A stretch of 64,000 nucleotides of DNA, from contig NZ_JAPZQK010000023.1 in the NCBI RefSeq assembly GCF_027530345.1, positions 19,767 to 83,766 of the forward strand, given 5' to 3'. This DNA is from Silanimonas sp. (lineage in GTDB: Bacteria > Pseudomonadota > Gammaproteobacteria > Xanthomonadales > Xanthomonadaceae). Below are positions 53,919 through 64,000 of the stretch, in pieces (position 1 is the first letter of the stretch; every line of letters starts with the position of its first letter). Below the pieces are notes generated by a model, which was given only the letters and a program-made list of their open reading frames with translations, was not told the origin of the DNA and made no database searches. Both the position numbers and the translations under genes were made by a program.

Positions 53919-56057
53919 TCAGGGGAGGCGGGCGATCGCGTCGAAATCGAGGGGGCGATGGAAGAGGAAGCCTTGGAACTCCGGGGCCCCCAGCGCCACC
54001 AGCCGCGCGAACTGGCCTTCGGTTTCGACCCCTTCGGCTACCACCTGCATGTCGAGGGCCGAGCAAAGGTCGACGACGCCGGCGATGAGTCGTGCAGCGC
54101 GCGCGTCGTCGGTGACGTCCTTCACGAAACTGCGGTCCAGTTTCACTTTGTGGAAGGGCAGGGTCTGGAGGTAGCTCAAGGACGAGTACCCCGTGCCGAA
54201 GTCATCGAGCGCCAGCGTGAATCCTTCGCTGCGCAGCTGGGTGAGTAGCCGGTGGGCACTTTCGATGTCCTGCACCAGGCCGGATTCGGTCACTTCGAGC
54301 TCGATGTCTTCCGGCCTGGCGCCTCCGGCCGCCAGCTCGGAGCGCAGGATTTCGCTGAGCATCGGGTCCTGAAGTTGCTTGGCCGCGAGGTTGACGCTGA
54401 CGAGGGCCTGTCGCCCGGATCGATGCAACTGCGCAGCCAGCGTGACCGCGGCGCGGATCGCAGCGCGACCAATGCGATCGATGAGCCCGTTCTCTTCCGC
54501 CAGGGGAATGAACTGCACCGGGCTGACCCAGCCCAGTTCCGGGGAGTGCCAACGCACCAGCACTTCGTACCCGACGATACGACGTTCGGCATCGACGCGG
54601 GGCTGGGCGACGAAGCGGAAATCGTCGCGATCGCAAGCGCGACGGAGCAGGCTGACCATCGTGAGGCGCTGCAGTCCATGCTCATCGAGGCTGGGCTCGT
54701 AGGCCTCCAACCGCGCTCGTCCGCGGCGCTTGGCGTAGCGCAGCGCGGTCCCGGCGTTGAGCACCAGCACCTCCGCCGACTCACCGTCCTCGGGATACAC
54801 CGCGAGGCCGGCGCTGGCAGTGAGTGACAGTGACGTGCCCGCTACCGCCAGTGGCTCGGCCAGCGCGGCAAGAAGGGCTCGGCCCACGGAGACGCCGTGC
54901 TGGGCATCCTGCCCCGGGGGGCCGATAGCCAGAAGTTCGTCGCCGCCCCAGCGCGCCAGCAGCCAGCCGGCGGGCATCATGCCCAGTGCGCGTTCGGCGC
55001 AGTGCGCCAGCACGCCGTCTGCTTCGCGCGCGCCTAGCCCGTCGTTCACGACCTTGAATTCATCGAGGTTGAGCCAGAGCGTCGGCACCGGTCGCTCGCC
55101 GGCCTCGGCGATCCTCACCGTCAGCGCGTCGGTGGCCGCCGCCCGGTTGATGAGACCGGTCAGCGCATCGATGCGTGATGCCGTCGCCAGCTCGATCTCC
55201 AGACGCTTCGCCTCGCGAAGGTCCTTGATCGACACGATCCATTGCGCGGATCGTTGGCCGGTTCCCGGCAGCATCGTGGCCGAGACATCGACCGGAATGC
55301 TGGCGCCCGGCAGCTGCAACCGACAATCGGGCACCCATAGGTGGGTCGCCGCCGAGCCCTCGCGAACGAAGGCCTCGACGAGCGCCGGAATAGCATGGGC
55401 GATCGCGACGCGCCGCGCCGAATCATGGGTGAATCCCGAAAGGGCGTGGAACGCCGCGTTGGATTCGAGCAAGCGCCAGGATCCGTCGCACAGGACCAGC
55501 GCGTCGCGCGAGTTGGCGAACGCGTGGCCCAGGACGCGAAGGGACTCGTCCTGTTCGCGTTGGCGGGTGATGTCCTTGGTGGTGCCCACCATGCGGCGGG
55601 CGATGCCGGACGCATCGCGTTCGATGACCCGGCCGCGGCTGCGGCGCCATGACTGGCCGTCGCGCAGCCGGTACTGCATGTCGTACTCGGCTGAACTGCC
55701 GGCAAGGTGGAGCCGCCATGCCAGCACCACCGATTCCACATCGGCCGGATGGATCGCATCCAGCACGTCGATCAGGAGGGCCGAGGTCTCCTGGGGCGGG
55801 GCATCGAGGGCGACGTAGCGCGCACTGCGCACGAGATCGGTCTCGGCCTCCCACTCCCAGATCGATTCGCCGCTCGCCCACAGCGCGAGTTCGAGCCGCC
55901 GCTGTGACCGCTCGGAGGCCTGCAGCGCCTCGAAGAGTTCGAGGCTCTTGCCCTCGAGCAGCCGTTCGGCCTCCTTCCGCGCAGCGCGCTCCCGCGCCAG
56001 ACGGCGCTCGTGCAATTCGTCCGCCTTGCTGGCCTCCTCAGGGACGGGGACGGACAT
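53919..56057 (-). CDS. PAS-PAS-GGDEF(degenerate)-EAL c-di-GMP enzyme, H-NOX partner
   Basis: N-terminal ERRLARERAARKEAERLLEGKSLEL helix; PAS folds; WGGDEL; EVLVRW; LDDFGTGYSS. Confidence 0.88.
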   Translation of the reverse strand: MSVPVPEEASKADELHERRLARERAARKEAERLLEGKSLELFEALQASERSQRRLELALWASGESIWEWEAETDLVRSARYVALDAPPQETSALLIDVLDAIHPADVESVVLAWRLHLAGSSAEYDMQYRLRDGQSWRRSRGRVIERDASGIARRMVGTTKDITRQREQDESLRVLGHAFANSRDALVLCDGSWRLLESNAAFHALSGFTHDSARRVAIAHAIPALVEAFVREGSAATHLWVPDCRLQLPGASIPVDVSATMLPGTGQRSAQWIVSIKDLREAKRLEIELATASRIDALTGLINRAAATDALTVRIAEAGERPVPTLWLNLDEFKVVNDGLGAREADGVLAHCAERALGMMPAGWLLARWGGDELLAIGPPGQDAQHGVSVGRALLAALAEPLAVAGTSLSLTASAGLAVYPEDGESAEVLVLNAGTALRYAKRRGRARLEAYEPSLDEHGLQRLTMVSLLRRACDRDDFRFVAQPRVDAERRIVGYEVLVRWHSPELGWVSPVQFIPLAEENGLIDRIGRAAIRAAVTLAAQLHRSGRQALVSVNLAAKQLQDPMLSEILRSELAAGGARPEDIELEVTESGLVQDIESAHRLLTQLRSEGFTLALDDFGTGYSSLSYLQTLPFHKVKLDRSFVKDVTDDARAARLIAGVVDLCSALDMQVVAEGVETEGQFARLVALGAPEFQGFLFHRPLDFDAIARLP

Positions 56058-56583
56058 GGAACACCGAAACCGGGCGGCCTTCGTACGTTCCGTGTTCCCA
56101 ATCCACCTGCAGCGACTCACCGAAGTGCCGGATGGCGCCAACGATGAGCCCCTGGGCCAGTGCTTCCATGCCACGCGGCGACTCGTACGCCAGATGGAGC
56201 GTGTCGCCCTCGCGGGACATCACGTGGAAGCGCGGCAACCGGGCTTCCGGATAGAGCTTTCGCACGGCGACGTGGATATCGCCATCCAACTGGCACAACA
56301 AATCGATCGTGCCGCGCCGTCCATCGATCAGGGACGCGTAGCCTTGGGTGAAGCGCCCGAAGAGATGCTCGCCGAAGGCCTGCACCAGCGCCCCGGCGGG
56401 AAGGCCGGTCTGCTCGGACAACGCGACCACGAGGGCGACGATCTCCTCGTGCGGGTAGTAACCCACGGCGGTGTAGGCGCCCTGGTTGGCCGGCGCCGCT
56501 TGTTCGATGATCCGATCGAGCACATCGGGCGAGAAGCGCTCTTCCACCATTTCCATGAATTCGGTGAACACGATCCCAAGCAT
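56038..56583 (-). CDS. hnoX: H-NOX heme NO-binding protein
   Basis: MLGIVF start, YTAVGYY, proximal His in IHVAVRKLYP and a YxSxR motif (YESPR). Confidence 0.9.
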   Translation of the reverse strand: MLGIVFTEFMEMVEERFSPDVLDRIIEQAAPANQGAYTAVGYYPHEEIVALVVALSEQTGLPAGALVQAFGEHLFGRFTQGYASLIDGRRGTIDLLCQLDGDIHVAVRKLYPEARLPRFHVMSREGDTLHLAYESPRGMEALAQGLIVGAIRHFGESLQVDWEHGTYEGRPVSVFHVRPRP

Positions 56584-56595
56584 CGACGCGCCTCC

Positions 56596-58047
56596 TCAGG
56601 CAAGGGTGTCGGGAATGTCGATCCCCACTTCGGCCAGTCTCTCGCGGACCCACTGATCGGCCGCACGAAGGGCGGCATTGTCACCGGTGCCAGCGAGCAT
56701 CGCCTGCGCAGCTTCGCGTTCCGTGAGGTAGCTCGCAAGCGTGCCCTCGGCCGGCGCCGAAGCGTGAAACCGGTCACGGCGCCACGCGTCCCACGCGCGC
56801 CGCTGTTCCGTATCCAGAGACTCCGGCCAGTTCCGTGCCTGGTAGCGGAAGAGCAAGGCCTTGAGTCGGGGATCCTGCAGTTGGGCCTCGAACGCCGGCA
56901 GGCTGGCCGGTGCGGCGGTGCGGATCCGCGGAAACAGCCGGCGGTCCGCATCGCCGATGAAGCCGCCATAGAGATCGCCGTCGGCATCGGTCTCGCCGAA
57001 ATCGCGCGACTCCGAGAACAGCGACACGCAGCGCGCAATGAACTGCGGGTGGGCGGCCAGCCATCCTGCGCGCTCCTGAGCCATCGAGGCGTCCAAGTGC
57101 AGGCGCTCGAGCTCCGCCGGCCGCACGTGGGCCAAGGGCAGCACTGCCGGGCAGCGGTTGGTGTGGATCTCCTTCAGGGGCAGGCGCTGGACGCCCTCGG
57201 GCAGCTGCGCCCGTGGCGTGAATAGGCGAGCCTTCAGCGTCGCGTCGTCCAGCAGCGCGAACCCGGCGGGATCGACCCCGAGGTCGTAGGCGATCACGCG
57301 CGTGCCGATCAACGGATGCACGGCGAGCGGCGCCACAAGCGCGGCGTGCCGCTGCCCGGGCGGGAAACGCCCCGAGACGTGCAGCAGGGGGGTGTGAGCC
57401 ACGAGGTCGCAGAGGCCGCGCACGGTCTTCTTGTCGCGAAGCTTCAGCACGTAATCCCAGAAACGGGGCTGCGCGTCTTTCAACTTCCGGGCGAGGCCGA
57501 TCAGCGCGCGGACGTCGCTGAGCGCCTCGTGGGCCAAGCCTTCGCGGACGCCATTGGCGTTGGCGAGTTCCTCGAGCTTGAAGCTCGCGTGCCCATCCTC
57601 GCGAAGCGGCCATTCGAGGCCTTCGGGCCGCAGCGCCCGGGCGAGACGCAGCACGTCCAGCAGGTCCCAACGGCTGTTGCCGTTTCGCCACTCGCGCTCG
57701 TAGGCGTCGTAGAAATTGCGATACAGCCCGAAACGGATGAATTCGTCGTCGAATCGAAGGCTGTTGTAGCCCACGGCGCAGGTGCCCGGTTCGGCCATCA
57801 GCTCGTGGACACGGGCGAAGAACTCGGCTTCGAGAAGGCCCTCCGCCATGGCGCGCTGCGGCGCGATGCCGGTGATCGCCGTGGCGACCGGTGAGGGCAG
57901 CACGTCGCCGGCCGGTTGGCAGAACAATGAAACGGGCGTATCGACCTCGCGGAGGTCGTCGTCGGTGCGGATCGCGGCGAACTGCGCGATGCGCGAGCGG
58001 CGCGGATCGCGGCCGAAGGTCTCGAGGTCGTACCAGAGGAAGCTCAA
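56596..58047 (-). CDS. sbcB: Exodeoxyribonuclease I
   Basis: WYDLETFG, GYNSLRFDDE, SFKLEEL and AHEALSDV motifs; TTG start overlapping the kmo stop. Confidence 0.95.
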   Translation of the reverse strand: MSFLWYDLETFGRDPRRSRIAQFAAIRTDDDLREVDTPVSLFCQPAGDVLPSPVATAITGIAPQRAMAEGLLEAEFFARVHELMAEPGTCAVGYNSLRFDDEFIRFGLYRNFYDAYEREWRNGNSRWDLLDVLRLARALRPEGLEWPLREDGHASFKLEELANANGVREGLAHEALSDVRALIGLARKLKDAQPRFWDYVLKLRDKKTVRGLCDLVAHTPLLHVSGRFPPGQRHAALVAPLAVHPLIGTRVIAYDLGVDPAGFALLDDATLKARLFTPRAQLPEGVQRLPLKEIHTNRCPAVLPLAHVRPAELERLHLDASMAQERAGWLAAHPQFIARCVSLFSESRDFGETDADGDLYGGFIGDADRRLFPRIRTAAPASLPAFEAQLQDPRLKALLFRYQARNWPESLDTEQRRAWDAWRRDRFHASAPAEGTLASYLTEREAAQAMLAGTGDNAALRAADQWVRERLAEVGIDIPDTLA

Positions 58048-59417
58048 CGCGCCAGCTCCAGCCAGTCCTCCGGCAAGGGGGCGAGGCCATCGACGATGCG
58101 CGCATCGAGCGCCGTGAGGTCGATCGAGGAAAGGTCGTCGATGCCGCGGGTTGCCTCCACCAGCAGCTCGCGCTGCCAGCGGCCGCGCTCCAGCGCAACG
58201 GCATAGGGCGTGCGGGTGAAGCTCACCATCGAGTAGCGCGGGACGAAGCGGCCGGGATGGCGCTCGGCGAGCTGCAGTTCCAGCGCCCGCTGGCGCCGCC
58301 AGTCCGGGTTGTCCACGGAATCGCGCATCTCGACGTAGTTTTCCAGCGCCATGGCCTGGATCGCCTCGGCATTCGGGCGACGGTCCGCCTCGAAGGCCGC
58401 GAAGGCATCGACGCTGTCCTCGTGCTCAGCCATCAGTCGGTCCAGCGCCGCCACGTCCTCGAAGGCGCAGTTCATGCCTTGGCCGTGGAAGGGCACCATG
58501 GCGTGGGCCGCATCGCCAATGAGCACGGCGCGCCCGTCGAGATGCCAGCGCCGCAAGCGCAACGTGGCGAGGCCACTGGTGGGGTTGTCGGCCCAATCGG
58601 CGGCCAGACCCGGCATCAGCGCCAGCGCATCAGGGAACTCGCGTTCGAAGAAATCCCGCGCTGCGGCCGCATCGGGCAGTTGCTCGAAGTTCGGGGTGCC
58701 GTCGCGGTGGGCGAGGAAGAGCGTCGCGGTGAACGTGCCCTCGGTGTTCGGCAGCGCGATCAGCATGTAGCCGCCGCGCGGCCAGATGTGCAGCGCGTCG
58801 CGGGCGATGCGGAAGCCGCCATCTTCGAGCGGCGGGATCTCCAGTTCCTTGTAGCCGTGGCCCAGCGGCTCGAAGTGCTCGTGGAGGTCGACATGGCGTT
58901 GCATCGCGGCGCGCAGCGCGCTGCCGGCGCCGTCGGCGCCGATCAGTGCATCGAAATCGATCCACTGCACGCTGCGGTCGTGGTCGTTGACCAGTTCGGC
59001 GCGACGTGCGGCGAAGTCGACGTAGTTCAAGCGCTGGTGGAAATGCAGGCGTGCTCCGGCACGTTCGGCCGCGTCGAGCAGCAGGAGGTTGAGATTGCCC
59101 CGATGCACCGACCAGATGCATTCGCGATCAACCCGGCCATACGGCTGGAAGTTGATCTGCCCTTCGCGCGGATGGACCATGCGACCGCGCATCGCCACCG
59201 CCTGCGCCAGCACGGCGTCACCAAGGCCGGCTTCGCGCAGTACGGCAAGGCCACGCGCCGCGAGCGCCAGGTTGATCGAGCGCCCGCCCTCGTAGCCGCG
59301 CAGCCGCGCGTCCGGCCGGCGCTCGAACACATCGACCCGGTGGCCGCGACGGGCGAGCAGGGCGGCGAGCAGCGCACCGGCCAGTCCGCCGCCAACGATC
59401 GTGTAGGCGCGGCTCAT
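58044..59417 (-). CDS. kmo: Kynurenine 3-monooxygenase
   Basis: IVGGGLAG, GRSINLALAARG, HIWPRG and GDAAHAMVPFHGQGMNCAFED motifs. Confidence 0.93.
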   Translation of the reverse strand: MSRAYTIVGGGLAGALLAALLARRGHRVDVFERRPDARLRGYEGGRSINLALAARGLAVLREAGLGDAVLAQAVAMRGRMVHPREGQINFQPYGRVDRECIWSVHRGNLNLLLLDAAERAGARLHFHQRLNYVDFAARRAELVNDHDRSVQWIDFDALIGADGAGSALRAAMQRHVDLHEHFEPLGHGYKELEIPPLEDGGFRIARDALHIWPRGGYMLIALPNTEGTFTATLFLAHRDGTPNFEQLPDAAAARDFFEREFPDALALMPGLAADWADNPTSGLATLRLRRWHLDGRAVLIGDAAHAMVPFHGQGMNCAFEDVAALDRLMAEHEDSVDAFAAFEADRRPNAEAIQAMALENYVEMRDSVDNPDWRRQRALELQLAERHPGRFVPRYSMVSFTRTPYAVALERGRWQRELLVEATRGIDDLSSIDLTALDARIVDGLAPLPEDWLELAR

Positions 59418-60691
59418 GACGGGCGCCAGTCGCGCACGGCGCGGACGAAGGCGAGGACGTCGGTGAAGCGGTTGTAGAGCGGCGCCGGGCTGATGCGGAT
59501 GACGTCCGGCTCGCGCCAGTCGCCGAGCACGCCGTTCGCGGCCAGATGCTCGAACAGCGCCCGGCCCATGGCACGGCCCCCGACCACGCGCAGCGACAGC
59601 TGGCAGCCGCGGCGCGCGGGATTAGCAGGCGTGAGGATCTCGATGCGCCCTGCGAGATGCGCGTTGACCAGGGCTTCGAGGTAGCCCGTGAGCTTCAGCG
59701 ACTTCGCCCGCAGGGCCGGCATCGTGGCCGCGTCGAACAGTTCGAGCGAGGCCCGGATCGGTGCCATCGCGAGGATCGGCGGGTTGCTCATCTGCCAGCC
59801 TTCGGCGCCCTCCGCGGGTTCGAACTGCGGCGCCATCAGGAATCGCGTGTCGGCGCGATGCCCCCACCAGCCCGCGAGTCGCGGCAGGTCGCTGCGGCGG
59901 CCGTGACGCTCGTGGACGAAGGCACCGGCGACCGCGCCCGGCCCGCTGTTGAGGTACTTGTAGGTGCACCAGGCCGCGAAATCGGCGCCGCTGTCGTGCA
60001 GGGCGAGCGGCAGGTTGCCAGCGGCATGGGCGAGGTCGAAACCCACGGCGCAGCCCTGCGCCTTGGCCAGGGCAGTGATCGCCGCGAGGTCGAAGGCTTG
60101 GCCCGTGCGGTACTGCACCCCCGGCCACAGCACCAGCGCGATGCGGGAGCCGTGCTCGGCCAGCACGCGCTCGATGGCCGCCATGCTGATCAGGCCGTTC
60201 GGCTCGTCGCCCTCGAGCTCGATCAGGTCGGTGGCGGGATCGAAGCCGTGGAAGCGGATCTGCGACTCGACGGCGTGGCGGTCCGACGGAAACGCGCCGG
60301 CTTCGATGAGGATGGCCGGCCGTTCGCGCGTGGGCCGGTAGAAGCTCGCCATCAACAGGTGCAGGTTGACGGTGAGGGTGTTCATCACCACCACTTCGGA
60401 GGGCAGCGCCCCGACGACGCGCGCCATCGGTTCGCGGAGCGTGGCGTGGTAATGCATCCACGGACGGTCCCCGCGGAAATGCCCTTCCACCGCATTCGTC
60501 GCCCAGCTCGCCAGTTCCTCGGCGATGGCCGTGGCCGCGGCGCGAGGCTGCAGTCCCAGCGAATTGCCGACGAAGTAGTGCAGGTCGCGCCCCTCGTGCT
60601 GGGGCACGTGGAAGGCCGCGCGATGTCGCGCCAAGGGGTCGGCGGCATCCTGGGCGAGGGCCCAGGCGTCGTGGTCGAGCGAAAGATCCAT
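59414..60691 (-). CDS. kynU: Kynureninase
   Basis: YFVGNSLGLQP, MNTLTVNLHL, FDLAHAAGN, WCTYKYLNSGPG and GWWGH motifs. Confidence 0.95.
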   Translation of the reverse strand: MDLSLDHDAWALAQDAADPLARHRAAFHVPQHEGRDLHYFVGNSLGLQPRAAATAIAEELASWATNAVEGHFRGDRPWMHYHATLREPMARVVGALPSEVVVMNTLTVNLHLLMASFYRPTRERPAILIEAGAFPSDRHAVESQIRFHGFDPATDLIELEGDEPNGLISMAAIERVLAEHGSRIALVLWPGVQYRTGQAFDLAAITALAKAQGCAVGFDLAHAAGNLPLALHDSGADFAAWCTYKYLNSGPGAVAGAFVHERHGRRSDLPRLAGWWGHRADTRFLMAPQFEPAEGAEGWQMSNPPILAMAPIRASLELFDAATMPALRAKSLKLTGYLEALVNAHLAGRIEILTPANPARRGCQLSLRVVGGRAMGRALFEHLAANGVLGDWREPDVIRISPAPLYNRFTDVLAFVRAVRDWRPS

Positions 60692-60699
60692 CGAAATCC

Positions 60700-61710
60700 T
60701 CAAGCGAATCGTGACGCCGGCAGGCCGAGCCAACGCAGGGCCGTGCCGTGGAAGAGTTGGGCCTGCTCGGCCTCGGAAAGCCCGAGCGCGGCGATGCCCG
60801 AGCCGGGCTCCTGCTCGCCGAGCGGGAAGGGGTAGTCGGTGCCCAGCATGACGGTGTCGGCACCGGCGACGTCGATCAGGTAGCGCAGCGCGCGCGGGTC
60901 GTGCACGCAGGAGTCGAAGAACAGGCGGCCGAAGTAGTCACGCGGATTCCGCGGGTTGTCGGTGGCGACGAGGTCGGGCCGCATGTGGAAGCCATGCTCG
61001 ATGCGCCCGATCGTGTACGGGAAACTGCCGCCGCCGTGGGCGAGGCAGACGCGCAGGCGCGGATGGCGTTCGAGCACGCCGCCGAAGATCAGCGCACAGG
61101 CGGCGCGGGACTGCTCGGCCGGCATGCCCACCAGCCACGGCATCCAGTACTTGGGCATCGATTCCGCGCCCATCATGTCCCACGGGTGCACGAGGATCGC
61201 CGCGCCGAGGTCTTCGGCCGCCTGCCAGAACTCGGTGAGTTCCGGTGCATCGAGATTCCACTCGTTGATGTGGGAGCCGATCTGCACGCCTTGCAGGTCG
61301 AGGCCATCCATGCAGCGCTCCAGCTCGCGCACGGCGAGGCTGGGCGACTGCAGCGGCACCACGCCGAGCCCCGCGTAGTGGCGCGGATGCTCGCGGCAGG
61401 CCTCGGCGATGTGGTCGTTCAGCGCGACATGCAGCTCCAGCGCCTGGTGGCCCTTCGCCCAGTAGCTGAACATCACCGGCACCGTGCTGATCACCTGCAC
61501 CTGCACGTCGAAGCGGGCGTAATCGGCGATGCGGATCGCCGGGTCCCAGGTCTTCGGCCAGATCTCGCGGAAGAACTTGCCGTCCTTGTAGATGCGGCAG
61601 CGCCCGTCGTCACCGTGGTGGATCACCGGGAAACGGGCATCGCCGTACTTGGCCGCGAGGTCGGGCCAGCGGTCCGGAAGGTAGTGCGCGTGGGTGTCGA
61701 TCTTCAGCAT
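60700..61710 (-). CDS. nbaD: ACMS decarboxylase (amidohydrolase fold)
   Basis: KIDTHAH, QVISTVPVMFSYW, LVHPWDM, WLVGMPAE, AHGGGSFP and LGTDYPFPLGE motifs. Confidence 0.88.
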   Translation of the reverse strand: MLKIDTHAHYLPDRWPDLAAKYGDARFPVIHHGDDGRCRIYKDGKFFREIWPKTWDPAIRIADYARFDVQVQVISTVPVMFSYWAKGHQALELHVALNDHIAEACREHPRHYAGLGVVPLQSPSLAVRELERCMDGLDLQGVQIGSHINEWNLDAPELTEFWQAAEDLGAAILVHPWDMMGAESMPKYWMPWLVGMPAEQSRAACALIFGGVLERHPRLRVCLAHGGGSFPYTIGRIEHGFHMRPDLVATDNPRNPRDYFGRLFFDSCVHDPRALRYLIDVAGADTVMLGTDYPFPLGEQEPGSGIAALGLSEAEQAQLFHGTALRWLGLPASRFA

Positions 61711-61711
61711 G

Positions 61712-62671
61712 TCAGGCCCCGAGCCAGGCGGCGAACGCGAAGTAGATCGGAATGCCGATCGCAAGGTTGAACGGGAAGGTGATGCCGAGCGCCGCGGTGA
61801 TGCAGCGCCCGACGTTGGCTTCCGGCAGCGAGGCGCGGACCGACGCCGGCGCGGCGATATAGGACGCGCTGGCCGTCATCGTGCCGAACACGGCCGCACC
61901 CGCGGGGGAAAGGCCCGCCCAGTGTCCGAGCGCGGTGCCGATGATCCCGTGCAGCAACGGCAGGGAAACCCCGTAGACCGCCAACCGGAAGGCGCCCCGG
62001 CCGATGCCGCGCAGCTGCGCGGCGGCCACCATGCCCATGTCGAGCATGAACAGCATCAGCGTGCCCTGGAACAGCTGGCCATACATCAGGTTCACCGCGT
62101 CCGTGCCGTGCTTGGTGGCGATGGCGCCGATGACCATGCCGCCGATCAGCAGCAGCGCCGTCTTGCCGACCAGCACCTCGCGCACCTGGTGCCACTGCAG
62201 GCCGGCGTCGCGTTTGGCCAGCGTCAGGCCGAGCAGGATGGCCGGGATCTCCAACGCCACGACCAGGGCCACTAGCACGCCTTCCGGGGCTTGGCCGCTG
62301 CGCTCGCCGAATTGCTGCGCGGCGATGAAGGTGACGGCCGAGACGGAGCCGAAATGCGCGGCGATGGCACCGGCTTCGAGCGGGCCGTCCTTCAACCACA
62401 GCCGCGCCATCGCGTAGGCCGACGCGCAGGTGACGATACCCGCGACGATGGTGACGCCGAGCAGGATCGCCACGTCGCCGAAGGAGGTGCTGCGCAGGGC
62501 CACGCCGCCCTTCAGGCCGATGGCCAGCAGCAGGAAGATCGACAGGTAGCTCTGGATCGCCGGAGGGATGGTGAGATCACTGCGCAACGCGCGGGCGATC
62601 AGGCCCAGCGCGAAGGCCAGCACCACCGGGGAGAGCAGGTTGCTGACGAGCAGTTCGGGGGAGAGGATCAC
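61712..62671 (-). CDS. sbtA: Sodium-dependent bicarbonate transporter SbtA family permease
   Basis: [40 protein letters not shown] and [14 protein letters not shown] motifs. Confidence 0.85.
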
Positions 62672-63198
62672 GCCGCCTCCCCGCTGTAGCGCGCCGGCGC
62701 GGGGTTCACGTGGCCGCACTGGCCGCAGCTCCGATTCGCGAGGGAGCGGTAGTAGCGGTCGAAGACCGCGCCGAACTGCGTTTCGATGTTGTCCAGCACG
62801 AAGAACTCCTCGTAGACGGCGTGGTTGCAGGCGGCGCAATACCAGCGCAGCCCATCGAGTTCACCGGCCGTGCGCTTGCGCTCGATGACGAGGCCAACGG
62901 ACCCGGGCTTGCGCTGCGGCGAGTGCGGCACGCGCGGCGGCAGGTAGAAGCACTCGCCAGCACGGATCGCGATGTCACGCACGCGGCCGTCCTCCTGCAC
63001 GCGCAGCACCATCTCGCCCTCGAGCTGCTGGAACCACTCGGGGCCCTCCTCGATGTGGAAATCGTCGCGCTCGTTGGGCCCGCCGACGATCATCACGATG
63101 TAGTCCCCGGCGACGATGCACTTGTTGCCCACCGGCGGCTTCAGCAGGTGGCGGTGTTCGTCGATCCAGGCCTGGAGGTTGAAGGCGTTGCCGAGCAT
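62668..63198 (-). CDS. nbaC: 3-hydroxyanthranilate 3,4-dioxygenase
   Basis: [34 protein letters not shown] and two CxxC pairs. Confidence 0.95.
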
Positions 63199-63223
63199 CG
63201 GGGCCTCGGGAAGGGAAGGGGAT

Positions 63224-63649
63224 TCAGCGTCGAAGCGCGGCGACGCACTTCAGTTCGATGGCGATCGGCGTGGGCAGCGCGGTGATGCCGAGCGTCGTCC
63301 GGCAGGGCGCGGTGTCGACATCGGGGAAACACTCGGCCCACACCGCGTTGTAGGCCGGAAAGTCGCGCGCCATGTCGGTGAGGTAGACGGTGACATCGAC
63401 GAGGTCCTCCCAGCGCGCCCCGCTGGCTTCGAGCACGGAACGCACATTCGCGAACACCGAGTGGCACTGGGCGACAATGTCGTACGTCACTAAGCGCCCA
63501 TCCGCATCCAGCACGTTGCCTGGCACGCCGTTCGTGGCCGGATCGCGCGGCCCGATGCCGGAGAGGAACAGCAGGTCGCCCACGCGCCGCGCATGCGGAT
63601 AGCGGCCGACGGCCTTCGGCGCCGCACTGGCGTGCACCGCCCCGCTCAC
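63224..63649 (-). CDS. RidA family protein, probable 2-aminomuconate deaminase
   Basis: [32 protein letters not shown] and IELK motifs; operon context. Confidence 0.8.
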
Positions 63650-64000
63650 GCCAGAACCTCGCGCTTCTGCAGGCGGGCGATGGCTTCGGCGTAGGTGGGC
63701 TCGACCGCGTCGCTGCTGCGCACGTCCATCGCGAGCTCGCGCACCCGGCCGTCATGGAGGCTGTACACCCAGCCGTGCACGGAGAGGTTCTGCCCGCGCG
63801 CCCAAGCGTCCTGAACGATCGTCGTCAGGCAGACGTTGCGGGTCTGCTCGATCACGTTCAGTTCGCAGAGCCGCGCATGGCGCAGGGATTCGAGCTCGCA
63901 CTGGGCCAGGCTGCCCGCATGCTTGTCGGCGACGTCGCCGACATGGCGGATCCAGTTGTCCGCGAGCCCGAAACGCTGGCCCTTGAGCGCGGCATGCACG
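63646..64000 (-). CDS. can: Beta-class carbonic anhydrase, 5' part outside window
   Basis: DNWIRHV, LCELNVIEQ and IVQDAWARGQNLSVHGWVYSLHDG motifs. Confidence 0.9.
   Translation of the reverse strand, partial: VHAALKGQRFGLADNWIRHVGDVADKHAGSLAQCELESLRHARLCELNVIEQTRNVCLTTIVQDAWARGQNLSVHGWVYSLHDGRVRELAMDVRSSDAVEPTYAEAIARLQKREVLA

Follow-up and report, generated by a model that had tools for sequence, protein, structure and literature searches.

Why should a gene from a family of bicarbonate transporters lie in the middle of a kynurenine operon in a heterotrophic bacterium? The question is raised by a stretch of 64,000 nucleotides (nt) from Silanimonas sp. (NCBI RefSeq assembly GCF_027530345.1, contig NZ_JAPZQK010000023.1, positions 19,767 to 83,766 of the forward strand), which as a whole is called the window here. 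Near its end, a gene for a permease of the SbtA family stands between nbaC, encoding 3-hydroxyanthranilate 3,4-dioxygenase (3-HAO), and the gene for 2-amino-3-carboxymuconate semialdehyde (ACMS) decarboxylase (ACMSD). The original prediction, made from the sequence, proposed that this permease and a nearby carbonic anhydrase (CA) handle the CO2 of the decarboxylation step or tune the split between NAD synthesis and catabolism, or alternatively that the permease carries an acid of the pathway. The analysis described here places the permease in the SbtA family and finds it conserved next to nbaC in part of the Lysobacteraceae; the explanation we favour, with about even confidence, is Na+/HCO3- uptake for a housekeeping supply of inorganic carbon.

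Family and fold of the permease

The permease matches the Sbt_1 profile PF05982 with 306.1 bits (cut-off 27) over profile positions 1-307 of 308, and a phmmer comparison with SbtA of Synechocystis gives an E-value of 2e-23. Its AlphaFold2 model (pLDDT 95.7, pTM 0.93) is built of ten helices arranged as a 5+5 inverted repeat, with discontinuous crossover helices, and can be superposed on SbtA: Foldseek aligns it to the HCO3--bound structure 7EGL_A with TM-scores of 0.88/0.84 and a root mean square deviation (rmsd) of 2.7 Å, and the five best structural matches are all SbtA entries (TM-scores 0.85-0.89, rmsd 2.3-3.4 Å). ASBT bile-acid symporters are the next-best matches, with TM-scores of about 0.6, and PIN is also among the structural neighbours. 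Judged by profile match and predicted model, the permease is a genuine secondary transporter of the SbtA family (Sbt_1, PF05982, TC 2.A.83). A mechanical call of a 375 amino acid (aa) open reading frame (ORF) for this gene was rejected, as it runs into nbaC; the 319-aa form fits the full-length homologs, which are 318-320 aa long and cover it to 99-100%.

Cyanobacterial SbtA1 (Synechocystis Slr1512; PDB entries 7CYE, 7CYF, 7EGK, 7EGL) is the Na+/HCO3- symporter of a carbon-concentrating mechanism. The permease shares with it the PF05982 family, the fold, the positions of the Na+ site and two serines among the four HCO3- ligands. It is, however, only 27-30% identical to SbtA1 and shorter (319 aa versus 374 aa), and is missing the cytoplasmic loop between transmembrane helices TM5 and TM6 (Synechocystis about 156-211, about 55 residues); the match between the two proteins splits at query 152/160 versus chain 155/212. 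Unlike SbtA1 it has neither an sbtB partner nor a low-carbon LysR regulator, its host is a heterotroph without a carbon-concentrating mechanism, and its gene lies inside a tryptophan/NAD operon.

The Synechocystis Na+-site residues F110/G111/A112/A320/S322 correspond to F107/G108/S109/T266/S268 of the permease, at the TM4a/TM9a crossover. In an alignment of 66 sequences G108 never varies, and S109 and S268 are each conserved to 90% or more; the ligands of this site are backbone atoms, so that these residues are indirect evidence for it. For the anion, docking and mutagenesis in Synechocystis SbtA point to S114, Y140, S324 and S327 as the residues hydrogen-bonding HCO3- (PMC8352866), and S114 and S324 are retained as S111 and S270. 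The crossover motif [F/Y]GSxS...SxSYxA is present in essentially all short-form proteobacterial homologs in an alignment of 202 sequences, and it is the same in the kynurenine-linked clade, to which the permease belongs, and in homologs that have a P-II gene downstream or a divergent LysR gene upstream. The clade is set apart from 180 other family members by M265, S277 and one short insert only, and every family-invariant residue is kept in the permease. A remodelled substrate pocket was considered and rejected, there being essentially no site divergence between the kynurenine-linked clade and the PII-linked homologs.

The kynurenine operon of Silanimonas

The kynurenine gene run is unbroken over the last 7.5 kb of the window, on the minus strand. 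Read along that strand it contains the following genes:

63646-64000 (-), beta-carbonic anhydrase (Can-type), 3' part, cut by the window edge (PF00484)
63649-64287 in window-equivalent positions (-), the whole beta-CA gene, located on the continuing contig
63224-63649 (-), RidA/L-PSP protein (PF01042, E 4.9e-27)
62668-63198 (-), nbaC, 3-hydroxyanthranilate 3,4-dioxygenase (PF06052, E 1.3e-64; TIGR03037 and NF009763 above cut-offs)
61712-62671 (-), SbtA-family (Sbt_1) permease, 319 aa (PF05982, E 3.6e-91)
60700-61710 (-), ACMS decarboxylase, nbaD-type, Amidohydro_2 (PF04909, E 3.4e-42)
about 59414-60733 (-), kynureninase, KynU (TIGR01814)
58044-59417 (-), kynurenine 3-monooxygenase-like (KMO) FAD monooxygenase (PF01494 and conserved context)
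56596-58047 (-), exonuclease I, sbcB (PF08411 and PF00929)

On the contig beyond the window, the whole CA gene is preceded by genes for an aldehyde dehydrogenase (ALDH) and a Nei/Fpg-like protein, and a near-identical public genome (locus L002; loci are given by such labels below) has the same gene order, including these two. The junctions are tight. The GTG start of RidA overlaps the CA stop; the GTG start of the permease (62671) overlaps the nbaC TGA by 4 nt (GTGA) and has a GGAGG Shine-Dalgarno sequence 4 nt upstream; the ACMSD ATG (61710) lies 1 nt past the permease TGA; and KMO and sbcB overlap by 4 nt. The kynureninase ORF as listed begins within the end of ACMSD, and its true start may lie a few codons further downstream. 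This much of the original prediction is borne out: the permease sits where it was said to sit with the overlap and gap described, the profile matches agree with the gene identities, and a PF00484 gene lies two genes upstream, with RidA and nbaC between. The absence of an adjacent sbtB also holds, as the flanking genes are nbaC and ACMSD and the only P-II family gene of the genome is on a separate contig (C63).

Curated equivalog thresholds are passed by nbaC (TIGR03037, 229.6 bits, cut-off 145.95) and kynureninase (TIGR01814, 459.3 bits, cut-off 246.4), and the L002 ortholog of the CA, 96% identical, passes the Can-type NCBIfam model NF007756 (271.7 bits, cut-off 251). ACMSD, KMO, ALDH and RidA have matches at the superfamily level only (Amidohydro_2, FAD_binding_3, Aldedh and RidA): RidA stays below the cut-off of TIGR00004, the best family match of ALDH is 2-hydroxymuconic semialdehyde dehydrogenase, below the cut-off of that model, and NCBIfam holds no model naming the permease or ACMSD. 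The assignments of ACMSD, KMO, ALDH and the deaminase therefore lean on conserved context, with ACMSD orthologs (75-92% identical) found at the same position across the family and KMO following kynU in all loci. RidA probably serves the catabolic branch as 2-aminomuconate deaminase. The exonuclease gene sbcB, functionally unrelated to the kynurenine pathway, closes the syntenic block as its conserved last gene and lies downstream in most loci. Past sbcB, the minus-strand run (window 53919-58047) goes on into an H-NOX / GGDEF-EAL pair.

A search of 56000-64000 for promoter-like and terminator-like sites found none. The junction between the permease gene and ACMSD is bridged by metatranscriptome contigs from two studies (61572-61909 and 61402-61797), and further contigs lie over the permease; none bridges the junction between nbaC and the permease gene among the contigs listed. 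Assembled contigs of this kind say nothing about strand, transcript ends or the level of expression, and DNA carry-over is possible. Together with the lack of an internal promoter or terminator, they are consistent with read-through transcription, short of proof.

The source genome, which is 99.96% complete, encodes NadC and no NadA, and tryptophan dioxygenase is encoded elsewhere in it. As nadA is absent, the kynurenine operon is the de novo NAD route of this Silanimonas, plus a partial catabolic branch. A passage in PMC10907753, citing Lima et al. 2009, describes a kynurenine route to NAD for Xanthomonadales, with aspartate oxidase and quinolinate synthetase missing. The CA of the operon is the only PF00484 (beta-CA) match in the genome, where no DabA, no SulP transporter and a single Sbt_1 were found. 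The nbaC-nbaD clusters for tryptophan or 2-nitrobenzoate in Pseudomonas and Burkholderia have the same enzymes (kynureninase and 3-HAO, and, as assigned here by context, KMO, ACMSD, semialdehyde dehydrogenase and a RidA-type deaminase). The present cluster differs from them in the interleaved CA and, in a minority of genera, in the SbtA-family permease. A further difference is that the genome yielded no DmpG-type 4-hydroxy-2-oxovalerate aldolase, an enzyme of the lower meta-cleavage pathway, though ACMSD, ALDH and RidA are present.

Conservation and loss within the Lysobacteraceae

The best genome matches to the permease by similarity make up a set of 80 loci (62-100% identity), and all 80 lie in a kynurenine cluster. 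They come from Silanimonas, Arenimonas, Pseudomarimonas, Pseudoxanthomonas, Luteimonas, Lysobacter, Cognatilysobacter and Alkalisalibacterium. For 78 of them the sequence available includes nbaC, and in 75 of these 78 the permease is no more than 150 nt away from it. Two gene orders occur, CA-RidA-nbaC-Sbt-ACMSD (51 loci) and CA-RidA-Sbt-nbaC-...-ACMSD (27 loci), and the permease is full-length except at locus or contig ends. In none of the 80 loci was a P-II gene seen next to the permease; the flanks were mapped with the cluster proteins only and without a P-II query. Four clusters retain the permease without ACMSD (L005, L007, L026 and L073). Several Lysobacter-type clusters have, inserted between nbaC and ACMSD, an Amidohydro_1 gene whose product is about 447 aa long and extended at the N-terminus (L072:10249-11592 (+), also L057, L064, L069, L075, L080, L095 and L035). 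One contig, CALRWS020000020.1 (L065), is labelled 'MAG: Chitinophaga pinensis'; it carries a typical Lysobacteraceae kynurenine cluster, groups with the Lysobacter-type clusters, and is probably mis-binned or mislabelled.

In an even sample of 150 Lysobacteraceae genomes from 64 genera, nbaC was found in 139 genomes and an ortholog of the permease in 17 (13 of the 64 genera), adjoining nbaC in all 17. In 13 genomes there is an Sbt_1 paralog of about 41-44% identity, never near nbaC (one of these, G084, is an unpublished genome used in these tallies only), and any Sbt_1 at all is present in 31 of the 150. In a sample of 401 genomes from the phylum no ortholog was found outside the family, the best match being 48% identical. 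A survey of sbtA neighbourhoods was among the checks suggested at the outset; the insertion turns out not to be unique to this genome, being conserved in at least 13 genera. It is conserved and ancient within the Lysobacteraceae, but accessory. No published description of this arrangement was found in searches for kynurenine/ACMSD with bicarbonate transporter and for Xanthomonadales with carbonic anhydrase.

In a tree of concatenated nbaC, KynU and KMO (FastTree, midpoint rooting, sample biased towards carriers), clusters with the permease group strongly, and at least 11 gains or losses are needed. The divergence of the permease between genera (62-73% identity) parallels that of the neighbouring kynU, KMO and nbaC. 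Both observations fit vertical inheritance with repeated clean loss, and they disfavour a recent horizontal spread of the permease alone. Where the gene is absent it has been lost cleanly, with no pseudogene remnant (for example, L122 has a 30-nt gap between nbaC and ACMSD). The permease is under purifying selection: compared with close relatives, its ratio of nonsynonymous to synonymous substitution rates (dN/dS) is 0.03-0.21 and does not exceed that of nbaC and KMO. The kynurenine-linked clade is monophyletic (support 100) and restricted to Lysobacteraceae, with metagenomic sequences as sisters. A recent duplication of the sbtA-sbtB paralog of the family was rejected as its origin, as the two belong to different major clades.

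Surroundings of other Sbt_1 genes

For comparison, the neighbours of 49 non-orthologous Sbt_1 genes from Pseudomonadota were called and clustered. In 16 of the 49 loci the next gene downstream encodes a P-II (SbtB-like) protein of about 100 aa, and in 20 a divergent LysR gene lies upstream; one locus reads CA-Sbt-PII. Kynurenine or aromatic-catabolism genes were found near none of the 49, and one of the nearest out-of-clade relatives (P0126) has DUF1800 and IMPDH as neighbours and no kynurenine genes near it. The Lysobacteraceae paralogs (L164-L175) are 38-44% identical to the permease, belong to another major clade, and are never near nbaC; the P-II gene follows in 9 of these 12, whereas the kynurenine-linked clade has no P-II partner. 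The short-form PII-linked proteins of Pseudomonadota are otherwise of the same length class (313-335 aa), share the crossover motif in the form YGSxS...SxSYxA and the invariant residues with the permease, and in part come from the same bacterial family. In two Lysobacteraceae genomes the PII-linked Sbt_1 paralog is directly preceded by an ORF of 371 aa that matches Amidohydro_2 weakly (E 5e-5; L168:2526-3638 (-) and L170:6980-8095 (-)).

SbtA-family HCO3- transporters do exist in autotrophic Pseudomonadota, and in Thiomicrospira pelophila sbtA is up 280-fold at low inorganic carbon (PMC10880623; PMC12628692). By analogy with the sbtA-sbtB and LysR arrangement of cyanobacteria, which they mirror, the P-II and LysR contexts can be read as hallmarks of inorganic-carbon uptake modules. 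The permease is an ordinary member of that subfamily and is unusual in its operon and in the loss of both regulators.

Carbonic anhydrase with and without the permease

From genera without the permease, 40 nbaC loci (L084-L123) were mapped. The form ALDH-CA-RidA-nbaC-ACMSD-KynU-KMO(-SbcB) is found in 24 of them and its first four genes in three more, giving at least 24 sampled clusters with ACMSD and no permease; 11 have the NAD-only form CA-nbaC-KynU-KMO-SbcB, without ACMSD, RidA and ALDH. CA is beside nbaC in 38 of the 40, decarboxylase or permease present or not, and the linkage of Can-type CA and nbaC is thus family-wide and independent of both. In five of the 40, a FUSC/YccS-type membrane protein of 700-750 aa (PF13515, PF04632) is encoded directly after nbaC on the same strand, which is the slot and the strand of the permease:

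L086, 6828-9005 (-), FUSC/YccS-type protein
L091, 9488-11737 (+), FUSC/YccS-type protein
L098, 9722-11923 (+), FUSC/YccS-type protein
L112 and L118, FUSC/YccS-type protein

Proteins of this FUSC/YccS/aromatic-acid-exporter type are unrelated to Sbt in fold and family and are generally annotated as organic-acid efflux proteins. None was found alongside Sbt in the 80 loci with the permease.

The beta-CA itself is missing in 2 of 127 high-quality genomes of the family, and both carry Sbt_1, as does a third CA-less Silanimonas (the genome of L007). The three are Silanimonas lenta DSM 16282, the L007 genome and G125 (genome labels G014, G125 and G547). S. lenta DSM 16282 (L006, 5565-7459) reads ALDH-RidA-nbaC-Sbt-ACMSD, with CA cleanly gone between ALDH and RidA. 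This pattern resembles the 'one or the other' bicarbonate supply of heterotrophs (PMC10880623). The Sbt_1 kept by a CA-less Silanimonas belongs either to the kynurenine-linked clade or to the PII-linked paralogs. MpsAB is reportedly a further case of such one-or-other supply.

Bicarbonate uptake as the favoured explanation

Family, fold, conserved linkage, purifying selection and the distribution of Sbt_1 relative to CA are what was observed; a bicarbonate substrate, inward transport and a housekeeping role are what we infer. The protein would be a ten-helix 5+5 transporter with a Na+ site in the core domain at the TM4a/TM9a crossover and an anion site containing the two conserved serines, and transport would probably proceed by an elevator movement. 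The clade would have shed the two partners of its relatives, PII-like SbtB and a LysR regulator, and the gene would be read through within a conserved operon ALDH-can-ridA-nbaC-(sbt)-ACMSD-kynU-kmo-sbcB. Na+-coupled bicarbonate uptake might supplement, and could replace, the Can-type CA of the operon, so that bicarbonate would be kept available in the cytoplasm for biosynthetic carboxylations. The permease would owe its location to the fact that the genome's sole beta-CA heads a steadily needed operon, and not to the CO2 from ACMSD. Silanimonas strains are described as alkaliphilic heterotrophs (PMC7824716). As CO2 is scarce at high pH, bicarbonate uptake makes sense there, and it might be useful in the alkaline, CO2-poor waters of Silanimonas.

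Several points weigh against bicarbonate uptake. In L007 and in S. lenta the permease is still beside nbaC though the CA is gone, and with both CA and nbaC linked across the family, position cannot separate 'near CA' from 'near nbaC'. The slot is also one that can be taken by a putative organic-anion exporter, the FUSC-family protein. The complementarity of CA and Sbt comes from three kin genomes of one genus, perhaps two loss events, in a survey of beta-class CAs. Two of the four docked Synechocystis HCO3- ligands are lost (Y140 is V137 and S327 is A273), and D325 is Y271; the V137 and A273 changes are common to the whole proteobacterial short-form subfamily and not specific to the clade, so that, going by sequence, this subfamily as a whole may differ from cyanobacterial SbtA1. 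Finally, a cytoplasmic CA and a bicarbonate importer working together would leak inorganic carbon as CO2 (PMC10880623).

Alternative explanations

The main rival, possible though unlikely, is that the cargo of the permease is an organic anion from the pathway, the permease being a recruited SbtA-family member that takes up 3-hydroxyanthranilate or another kynurenine-derived acid, or handles quinolinate or picolinate. This would explain why the gene keeps to nbaC in 75 of the 78 informative loci, on either side of it and translationally coupled to it here, and why it stays there in L007, where CA, RidA, ALDH and ACMSD are all absent. The loss of SbtB and LysR, the partners of inorganic-carbon-regulated relatives, would also fit, and the structural neighbours ASBT and PIN are organic-anion carriers. 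It is the FUSC protein in the same slot, never found with Sbt, that keeps this alternative alive, but this coincidence amounts to five loci from related genera. One would expect the pocket to look different had the substrate changed from bicarbonate to an aromatic or pyridine carboxylate, and the unchanged crossover motif and invariant residues, with two clade-specific substitutions relative to the PII-linked paralogs, therefore count against this alternative. So does the retention of Sbt_1 in the CA-less genomes, which fits an inorganic-carbon role, and the lack of aromatic-catabolism or kynurenine genes near all 49 other Sbt_1 loci. A doubtful extension of the same idea is that the place after nbaC is a 'transporter slot', filled by an SbtA-family or a FUSC-type protein depending on the genus, both handling a reactive anion of the pathway (3-hydroxyanthranilate, quinolinate or picolinate).

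It is improbable that CA and permease form a pathway-specific module for CO2, HCO3- and pH, either recapturing or disposing of the CO2 from ACMSD or setting the split at ACMS. In its favour, the two genes are embedded among the pathway genes and are apparently read through with them; ACMSD and NadC both release CO2, and NAD depends on ACMS cyclisation here (nadA absent, nadC present). Neither the recapture or export of ACMSD CO2 nor the tuning of NAD synthesis versus catabolism, as first proposed, is supported: four clusters keep the permease without the decarboxylase, CA stays beside nbaC in 38 of 40 loci without the permease, including the 11 decarboxylase-less NAD-only clusters, and at least 24 sampled clusters with ACMSD have no permease. 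The permease is present in only 17 of the 139 genomes with nbaC, and S. lenta has ACMSD and Sbt but no CA. Being kept without ACMSD and absent from most ACMSD clusters, the permease tracks nbaC and the operon and not the decarboxylase. We also know of no reported effect of bicarbonate on 3-HAO, ACMSD or ACMS cyclisation, no exhaustive search for one having been made.

That the permease is a passenger without a current role, a leftover insertion kept by inherited synteny, is very improbable: its patchy presence (13 of the 64 sampled genera, with the many gains or losses on the cluster tree) and the unrelated housekeeping genes sbcB and can riding in the same block would suit this, but the full-length gene throughout the 80 loci apart from truncated ends, the low dN/dS, the retention of all invariant family residues and the clean losses speak against it.

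Meaning for the family and for Silanimonas

Work on SbtA has dealt almost only with the carbon-concentrating mechanisms of autotrophs and with its possible use in crop engineering. The present analysis delimits a clade of SbtA in heterotrophs that has given up the PII valve and whose expression apparently comes from an operon for tryptophan and NAD. It also ties the sole Can-type CA gene to an operon for NAD biosynthesis across a whole bacterial family. If the permease is a carrier of pathway acids, the substrate range of the SbtA family would be wider, and under the 'transporter slot' idea it would be the first SbtA-family member with an organic substrate, bicarbonate then not being the only cargo of the family. 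If on the other hand it transports bicarbonate, it would be of practical interest as a naturally unregulated SbtA, and it would also be a clean case of substitution between CA and a bicarbonate importer in a heterotroph, for which Silanimonas lenta, having no beta-CA, would be a ready test organism.

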